Assembly (NCBI GenBank): GCA_013375475.1
Contig: JABXKD010000052.1
Span: 1-26,126 of the forward strand
DNA from: Promethearchaeota archaeon
Lineage (GTDB): Archaea; Asgardarchaeota; Lokiarchaeia; Sigyniarchaeales; SOKP01
Direction: 5' to 3'
Length of the DNA: 26,126 nt
This document shows positions 8,404-8,505 of the stretch, in pieces (the first letter of the stretch is position 1; the number at the start of each line of letters is the position of its first letter). A program made the translations under genes and the position numbers. Below the pieces are notes generated by a model, which saw only the letters and a list, made by a program, of their open reading frames with translations, made no database searches and was not told where the DNA came from.

Positions 8404-8505
8404 ATGCTGTTTCAAAAAACGACTAAAACTGAATCTAAGAATTCATTTTTGAAAGATTATCCCTTTTTGTTGTTATTATTAAATCTACTCTTATTATTAC
8501 TGTAA
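8404..8505 (+). CDS. Leucine-rich leader peptide (LeuL-like uORF), 33 aa
   Basis: Manual translation gives MLFQKTTKTESKNSFLKDYPFLLLLLNLLLLLL*. The last 12 sense codons are TTG TTG TTA TTA TTA AAT CTA CTC TTA TTA TTA CTG. It ends 94 nt upstream of leuA on the same strand. Confidence 0.8.
   Translation: MLFQKTTKTESKNSFLKDYPFLLLLLNLLLLLL

Follow-up and report, generated by a model that had tools for sequence, protein, structure and literature searches.

A conserved leucine-codon leader upstream of leuACD in Asgard archaea as a candidate amino acid sensor

Leader-peptide attenuation is, as far as the literature that we searched shows, so far known mainly from bacteria, where leuL, hisL, pheL and trpL of Gammaproteobacteria, together with candidates in Actinobacteria (PMC1262725, as excerpted), feature a short 5′ open reading frame (ORF) in which cognate codons form a run toward the 3′ end. 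Here we describe an ORF of this layout, 33 codons long and ending in a run of leucine (Leu) codons, that precedes the leuACD genes in a 26,126-nt stretch of DNA from a Promethearchaeota archaeon (Asgardarchaeota; Lokiarchaeia; Sigyniarchaeales; SOKP01), which comprises positions 1 to 26,126 of contig JABXKD010000052.1 in GenBank assembly GCA_013375475.1 (forward strand, hereafter the window). In addition to the ORF and its codon run, the locus shares with the bacterial attenuators a stable helix beside the stop codon, another helix on the 5′ side in which the regulatory codons take part, and a repetition of the same logic for tryptophan (Trp). The helix that corresponds to the 2:3 type of the bacterial class is strongly supported here. 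Unlike the bacterial systems, the locus has an archaeal host, a putative promoter with a TATA-like box and B recognition element (BRE), no conserved terminator, no 3:4 helix that could be found and no Rfam match, and the strands of its hairpin are consistently pyrimidine-rich on the 5′ side and purine-rich, resembling a Shine-Dalgarno (SD) sequence, on the 3′ side.

Three further classes of control invite comparison. As in translational attenuation of the ermC and cat type, a ribosome stalled on the leader would refold a hairpin farther along the RNA and uncover a sequence to which ribosomes bind, although here the trigger would be the supply of tRNA-Leu rather than an antibiotic, and the hairpin hides an SD-like tract 35–40 nt upstream instead of the SD at the leuA start codon. 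Eukaryotic upstream ORFs (uORFs) such as those of GCN4 and the arginine attenuator peptide likewise couple amino acid status to a downstream ORF through a short upstream one; they operate by cap-dependent scanning and reinitiation or by peptide-specific stalling, whereas both Asgard ORFs have SD-like sites and the sensor is a cognate codon run as in bacteria. In tnaC, the nascent peptide together with free Trp stalls termination and blocks Rho. With tnaC and Rho-dependent attenuation (abstract of PMC8429421) the present locus would share a ribosome at the end of the leader ORF that governs the RNA just past the stop codon, but here hungry codons would provide the signal, and the locus has no known site for a termination factor. 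We found no archaeal leader-peptide attenuator in open-access papers and preprints (full text), which agrees with the lack of precedent assumed in an earlier reading of the window made from its letters alone (the sequence-only reading). Related items were uORFs of Haloferax without cognate-codon logic (excerpts of PMC7261190), the bacterial candidate attenuators of Actinobacteria (excerpts of PMC1262725) and an account of the conserved ilv pathway whose excerpted attenuation references are bacterial (PMC13158618).

We consider it likely that the 33-codon ORF is a cis-acting, Leu-sensing regulatory leader of leuACD, whatever the step at which it acts. Those checks proposed in the sequence-only reading that sequence data can address all spoke for it. 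Leu sensing is well supported because the ORF is conserved, its codons are Leu-specific, a hairpin (P3) adjoins its stop codon, signals for its expression lie upstream, and a Trp leader parallels it. The mechanism is probably unlike the bacterial one, since a hairpin plus U-tract terminator is not conserved.

The leucine-codon leader of leuACD

The leader, its presumed sensor, the box upstream and the genes that follow are placed in the window as listed here.

8340-8353, plus strand: BRE/TATA-like promoter box (putative) gtaaaTTTTATAAG, ~55 nt before the leader ATG, with its TATA-like part TTTTATAAG at 8345-8353
8404-8505, plus strand: leader ORF, ATG start, 33 sense codons and TAA, translation MLFQKTTKTESKNSFLKDYPFLLLLLNLLLLLL
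8467-8502, plus strand: Leu run, the presumed sensor, with 11 of 12 codons for Leu (two TTG, six TTA, one each of CTA, CTC and CTG) and one AAT
8600-10219, plus strand: leuA, 2-isopropylmalate synthase with LeuA allosteric domain (Pfam HMGL-like and LeuA_dimer; NCBIfam NF002085, 558 bits against a cut-off of 517)
10239-11525, plus strand: leuC, 3-isopropylmalate dehydratase large subunit (Pfam; TIGR02083, 647 against a cut-off of 611)
11549-12040, plus strand: leuD, 3-isopropylmalate dehydratase small subunit (Pfam; TIGR02087, above cut-off)

The last 12 sense codons of the leader are, in order, two TTG, three TTA, AAT, CTA, CTC, three TTA and CTG; the stop codon ends at 8505 and the leuA ATG stands at 8600, which leaves a gap of 94 nt. 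The sequence-only reading had proposed an ATG-initiated ORF of 33 codons with 11 Leu among the last 12, in five codon types, 94 nt before leuA and at the head of a leuACD operon; the letters of the window bear out the first part, and the Pfam and NCBIfam assignments of leuA, leuC and leuD above their cut-offs bear out the second. On its other side the leader is bordered by a divergent sulfatase gene (6696-8219, minus strand). A genome-wide scan collected 3315 ATG-ORFs of 12–70 codons that end at most 250 nt before a long ORF, and the leader is the most residue-biased real ORF among them (11 Leu in the last 15 residues; binomial p 1.5e-7), the sole entry ranked above it being an artefact that contains N. 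The C-terminal 13 residues of the peptide are hydrophobic enough for a membrane helix, and the exact peptide had no match in a collection of 15 billion proteins. No Rfam covariance model reached its gathering score anywhere in the window, including the Leu-control families (Leu leader, Leu/Phe leader and T-box); when thresholds were lowered to chance level for 8150-8700, chance-level matches were all that appeared (E ≥ 0.69).

The leader was then followed through related genomes. A LeuA search returned 55 leuA loci at 72–94% protein identity, all in records of metagenome-assembled genomes (MAGs), of which 54 were usable, the remaining one holding the 3′ part of leuA only. The Leu run lies upstream of leuA in 54/54 and closes an ATG-ORF in 52/54, the other two being cut by a contig end or an assembly gap, so that the short ORF with its Leu run and varied synonymous codons, which the sequence-only reading had expected to find in relatives, is indeed retained by them. 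Counted from the first in-frame ATG, the 52 ORFs span 18–89 codons (32–38 in most), and their stop codons are followed by the leuA ATG after 82–132 nt (mostly 87–102 nt). The locus of the window itself recurs in same-genus genomes at 89–94% LeuA identity, and the leader is also found at three loci of a second family with 64–66% LeuA identity. Between clades the N-terminal two thirds of the leader diverge strongly while the frame stays open. One relative (L009 / L076) has a run of N with duplicated flanks between leader and leuA, which inflates the distance to 362 nt and looks like a scaffolding artefact.

Codon statistics were taken over 52 distinct leaders, with positions counted back from the stop codon. 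Leu occupies codons −1 to −4 in 46–51 of these leaders, −5 and −6 in 40 and −7 to −13 in roughly half of them. Over the last 12 positions Leu is written as TTA (323), TTG (53), CTT (33), CTC (20), CTA (16) and CTG (4), and some of the swaps change two bases, such as TTA to CTC, with the residue retained. TTA makes up 72% of the Leu codons in the run vs. 43% in leuACD. Where the run is interrupted, N, D, S or E usually stands in for Leu and I, V, F or M seldom does, and this polarity argues against a generic hydrophobic peptide. The stop codon varies as well (39 TAA, 8 TAG, 5 TGA). Since the +1 frame of the last 12 codons carries 96 stops over the 52 leaders, the run is not a nucleotide element maintained in another frame, a possibility named as damaging when the leader was first proposed.

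Upstream signals and RNA structures around the leader

In relatives, a purine run with a TTTTTAAA/TTTTATAA box lies ~52–62 nt upstream of the leader ATG, the same distance as the TATA-like box that the sequence-only reading had placed upstream of the leader and that is present at 8345-8353. We infer that the box at 8340-8353 is the promoter of leader and leuACD; the alignments, judged by eye, show no obvious promoter-like box in the stretch from leader to leuA. An SD-like GGGA or AGGA stands ~9–15 nt before the leader ATG across relatives (GGGA at 8390-8393 in the window). The genome's archaeal 16S rRNA, to whose tail the duplexes reported below refer, ends in GGAUCACCUCCU at its 3′ side. Two structured regions, P1 on the 5′ side and P3 beyond the stop codon, and the spacer before leuA are laid out as follows.

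8371-8398, plus strand: 5′ strand of P1 in the 5′ untranslated region (5′UTR); 8371-8383 pairs with the first Leu codons, and 8387-8398, AAAGGGAUUAAU, includes the SD-like GGGA and pairs with codons before the Leu run
8455-8483, plus strand: 3′ strand of P1, made of GAUUAUCCCUUU (codons D-Y-P-F, 8455-8466) and the first Leu codons (8472-8483)
8505-8560, plus strand: hairpin P3, whose first base is the final base of the stop codon; 8508-8515, ACCCCUCU, and 8550-8557, UUGGGGGU, form the outer stem; inner hairpins at 8516-8532 and 8533-8546
8549-8564, plus strand: purine-rich, SD-like 3′ strand of P3 and the few U that follow it, TTTGGGGGTTTTGTAT; binding to the 3′ tail of the 16S rRNA of the same genome at −9.6 kcal vs. 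−3.8 for the leuA SD window
8561-8599, plus strand: A-rich spacer, 60% A and 2% C over 8561-8605; SD-like TAGGT at 8587-8591, 8 nt before the leuA ATG

The two helices of P1 (8371-8383 with 8472-8483, and 8387-8398 with 8455-8466) come from the RNAalifold consensus of six same-genus leaders, in which 64/72 and 60/66 alignment cells, respectively, form standard pairs. In this domain the 5′UTR and the start region of the leader pair with codons at the beginning of the Leu run; an analogous 5′ domain was seen in two other clades.

Hairpin P3 is present in the minimum free energy (MFE) folds of 53/53 leaders, measures 40–67 nt and has its first base at a point from 3 nt short of the stop codon's end to 6 nt beyond it (0–4 nt beyond in most); from its end to the leuA ATG there are 25–73 nt, mostly 32–44. 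Its mean folding energy is −20.0 kcal vs. −11.3 kcal for dinucleotide shuffles (mean z −3.5), and in 45 of the 53 leaders at most 5 of 100 shuffles were as stable. The arms co-evolve: own arms pair at −19.7 kcal vs. −12.2 kcal for mismatched ones, a difference reached in 0/2000 permutations. Compensatory pairs were found in clade alignments (6/15 pairs in one, 6/32 in another), and in the alignment with 32 pairs 92% of the cells are paired, vs. 42–54% with partners slid. In 49/53 leaders the 5′ arm, beside the stop codon, is pyrimidine-rich (CCUCU-like) and the 3′ arm purine-rich. This 3′ arm forms a duplex with the 16S tail at a mean of −6.95 kcal, whereas the leuA SD window gives −4.40 and random windows −2.97, and it binds the tail better than the leuA SD window does in 39/53 leaders. 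The leuA SD (8587-8591) itself lies outside P3, and AGGT is nearly invariant ~10 nt before leuA in a 53-row alignment. A simple scan gave one match to a weak terminator-like site, at 8544-8556 plus TTTTGTATAT (GGGGG-TTTTGT in the window). On the 53-row MAFFT alignment, which is too rough for the purpose, RNAalifold drew 0 pairs, and a covariance model built from 11 hairpins recovered its own clade only, giving no clade-wide structural alignment. A 31-codon ATG-ORF at 8526-8621 (plus strand) begins within P3, is in the −1 frame with respect to the leader and runs across the leuA start; it is probably incidental, its frame extending to leuA in only 6/53 relatives.

A tryptophan counterpart and the host genome

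A search for leaders of other amino acids had been suggested along with the Leu leader, and it turned up a Trp-codon leader before trpB2. In the same genome, the short ORF MVTENFDFCWQWPWRS (contig C222, 48332-48382, plus strand; ending in WQWPW and the stop codon) lies 168 nt before the gene of a TrpB-like, pyridoxal phosphate (PLP)-type enzyme (trpB2; NF009057, 631 bits against a cut-off of 366), with a TATA-like box ~55 nt upstream and a hairpin that overlaps the last Trp codon and the stop codon. A short ATG-ORF with at least two Trp precedes the trpB2 orthologue in 27/30 relatives from four families, or in 24/30 when two Trp are required within the last 12 codons, and such an ORF precedes the gene at 10/20 loci in further families of the phylum, in one case from a doubtfully long distance. 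Some Trp leaders have T5–T7 tracts 45–75 nt past the stop codon, and in one GC-richer relative the Trp codons pair, as judged by eye, with a strand directly before U6. The F-rich short ORF MSLCFNNKVFFFFIFSGKKFPF (contig C253, minus strand), ~151 nt before the 3-dehydroquinate synthase II (aroB′) gene and with similar ORFs at 10/30 relatives' loci, is a possible phenylalanine (Phe) leader of the aromatic amino acid pathway, although AT-rich DNA often contains runs of F. On contig C224 another Leu-rich ORF turned up and was rejected because a longer ORF encloses it in a different frame; short ORFs biased toward His, Thr or Val were rejected too, their downstream genes being unrelated or doubtful.

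The window's genome consists of 288 contigs at 32.5% G+C and carries an archaeal 16S rRNA on contig C222 as well as Snf7 and Roadblock genes. Relatives of the window locus are Asgard archaea, most of the 55 leuA loci being titled Promethearchaeota or Promethearchaeia, with a few under other Asgard names and one partial record labelled bacterium; the archaeal origin of the contig, on which the novelty of the leader had been made to depend, is supported by these titles. The record DATKTW010000014.1, labelled Nanopelagicaceae bacterium, contains a leuA fragment 92% identical to the window's protein and is probably a mis-binned Asgard contig. Contig C263 of the archaeal bin bears a bacterial 16S rRNA, two tRNAs and a 23S rRNA together (from 2265-3749 onward), and this bacterial rRNA operon means that the MAG is contaminated.

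The distribution of leuA is patchy, with a match at E ≤ 1e-120 in 25/151 genomes sampled across the phylum. Within the genus, an orthologue occurs in ~9/25 genomes (eight complete and one cut by a contig end, the window's own included) and in 0/12 of the further same-genus genomes of the phylum sample. The Leu and Trp genes seen in the window's genome are leuACD with one Iso_dh gene, and a stand-alone trpB2. Because the families KARI_C (ilvC), HisG and Chorismate_bind (trpE) had no match in this genome, which is rated 100% complete, Leu and Trp are apparently made by terminal or salvage steps; it would seem that both arise from late intermediates through regulated steps of this kind, and that those steps carry the leaders. 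The Iso_dh gene, a leuB candidate, has no leader before it. A run of aragorn without intron search listed 23 tRNAs and no tRNA-Leu(UAA), a result that is uninformative.

Elsewhere in the window, ORFs of 749 aa (12096-14345, minus strand, converging on leuD) and 578 aa (19250-20986, plus strand) have no Pfam or NCBIfam match, and 24910-26109 (minus strand) encodes a VWA domain with RING/PHD-like zinc fingers, a eukaryote-like domain pairing.

Candidate output, rival explanations and meaning

In the mechanism that we propose, transcription would start at the promoter-like box ~55 nt upstream of the leader, and the leader would be translated from its own SD-like site and ATG, as their conservation suggests. 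On the model of bacterial leuL, hisL and pheL, a shortage of charged tRNA-Leu would park a ribosome at the terminal Leu codons, and the parked ribosome would alter the folding of the adjacent RNA; stalling on Leu codons would in this way switch on leuACD. As for the output, we tentatively favour an occupancy switch at P3, because it fits a hairpin that abuts the stop codon, the near-invariance of the last four Leu codons and the fixed asymmetry of the hairpin strands. A ribosome on the last Leu codons or the stop codon would hold the 5′ strand of P3 in its mRNA channel, the base of P3 would open, and the SD-like strand so exposed would serve as a landing or standby site and increase initiation at leuA; with plentiful Leu-tRNA, ribosomes would clear the site fast and P3 would stay shut. 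Premature termination or processing is nearly as likely as this switch.

Several observations count against the occupancy switch or against the sensor reading as a whole. The SD-like strand of P3 lies 35–40 nt before the leuA ATG, beyond the normal range of an SD, and no conserved start codon follows it; at that distance and with no start codon following, a standby role is speculative. P3 could be reached only by a ribosome at the last one to three codons or the stop codon, and Leu codons farther upstream would not open it. The modelled energy for opening the leuA start region falls from 3.5 kcal/mol in the free RNA to 2.6 kcal/mol with a parked ribosome, a change of ~1 kcal/mol. The window's own P3 is marginally more stable than its shuffles (z −1.5), and for the 221-nt leader taken whole shuffling costs no stability (z +0.66). 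As relatives of one another, the 53 leaders are fewer independent cases than the counts suggest. The leader is absent before leuA at five more distant loci of the same order and at 14/14 loci from five other families of the phylum (43–51% LeuA identity); judged by its occurrence in the sequences compared, the leader before leuA is a clade-specific device.

Two other routes from the leader to leuA were considered. The Leu run pairs with the leuA start region, and so would mask it, in the MFE folds of 36/53 leaders and in consensus folds, yet such masking is at most a weak possibility. The helix between run and start region shows no co-evolution (own −9.3, mismatched −9.4; no better than shuffled partners), its register agrees within 3 nt in 13/51, and of 278 other start regions 82% pair with the Leu run better than the window's spacer does. 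Masking is no better than composition predicts, and the leuA start region is predicted to be largely open. A hungry-codon frameshift that would link the leader to leuA was rejected, the alternative frames reaching leuA in only 6/53 and 7/53.

The same Leu sensor could instead act through premature loss of the transcript, which we hold to be possible but somewhat doubtful in either of two variants. In the first, P3 would combine with its short U-rich stretch into a weak terminator, and a ribosome positioned on the last codons would keep it from acting. In the second, which follows the classical logic, stalling early in the run might allow P3 to form and shield the nascent RNA, whereas a ribosome that had reached the stop codon would bare the 3′ strand for factor-dependent termination or cleavage, perhaps by a factor of the aCPSF1/FttA type. 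Consistent with transcript loss are the hairpin followed by TTTTGT in the window, the position of P3 exactly at that of segments 2 and 3 of bacterial attenuators, and the T5–T7 tracts and the U6 seen (by eye) after Trp leaders. A possible 1:2 helix also points this way, although its signal is weak: codons −9 to −4 pair with the inner 5′ strand of P3 at −4.9 for own partners vs. −4.15, a result matched in 5/2000 permutations among 66 tests, and one G-C to A-U swap (GAUCU/AGAUC vs. AAUCU/AGAUU) was noticed by eye. The A-rich leuA start region, which looks built open, argues against translational masking and to that extent for transcript loss. Against it, oligo-T is not conserved, since a T run of at least five between stop codon and leuA occurs in 17/53 only and a run of at least four starting just after P3 in 11/53 leaders only. 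Nor does any downstream partner co-evolve with the 3′ arm of P3: neither the spacer nor the 5′ coding region of leuA gave a signal, so that no 3:4 helix was found.

The readings that deny the leader a sensing role fare worse. It is improbable that the ORF is incidental and that a structured 5′UTR, or a DNA site for a protein regulator (e.g., of the Lrp type), retains a U-rich tract as nucleotides. Such an origin would account for TTATTATTA, nearly invariant as nucleotides in the 53-row alignment, for the excess of TTA in the run and for the pairing of 5′UTR with Leu region, but not for a frame of 28–60 codons kept open with ATG and SD-like motif at 52/54 loci in AT-rich DNA whose other frames carry stops, for Leu that survives two-base codon swaps, for a stop codon that varies in type and is fixed in position beside P3, or for the recurrence of the cognate logic with a single-codon residue, Trp, before trpB2. 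A small membrane peptide with a function of its own, merely sharing the leuACD transcript, is highly improbable: the hydrophobic C-terminus and the conservation of the ORF would suit it, whereas the residues that break the run are N, D, S and E and not the I, V, F or M that a helix would tolerate, the N-terminal two thirds are poorly conserved across clades, the exact peptide went unmatched in the protein collection, and in every case the ORF keeps a fixed spacing to leuA and has a hairpin where it stops. That AT-rich intergenic DNA produced the ORF by chance might be argued from the low G+C of the genome and from Leu being, at 13%, the commonest residue in short spurious ORFs; the comparative data refute it, with the run present at all 54 orthologous loci down to 72% LeuA identity and at the three of 64–66%, and the leader's rank as the top real entry of the 3315-ORF scan also counts against it.

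Returning to control by a ribosome at P3, we offer with some reserve the wider view, drawn from sequence comparison, that Asgard archaea may possess a family of cognate-codon leaders (Leu for leuACD, Trp for trpB2 in several families, perhaps Phe for aroB′) without a bacterial-type terminator. In such leaders a ribosome at the last codons would set the state of the hairpin abutting the stop codon, and hence the availability of an SD-like site or the protection of the transcript, and the family would stand between bacterial attenuators and eukaryotic uORFs. If confirmed, the leader would extend translation-coupled amino acid sensing to Archaea, and notably to the lineage closest to eukaryotes, and would indicate that cognate-codon sensing can work through outputs besides the intrinsic terminator. 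Its more than 50 natural variants would then provide a conserved test bed for the interplay of ribosome, RNA structure and RNA polymerase in archaea, and the annotation of Asgard MAGs would improve.

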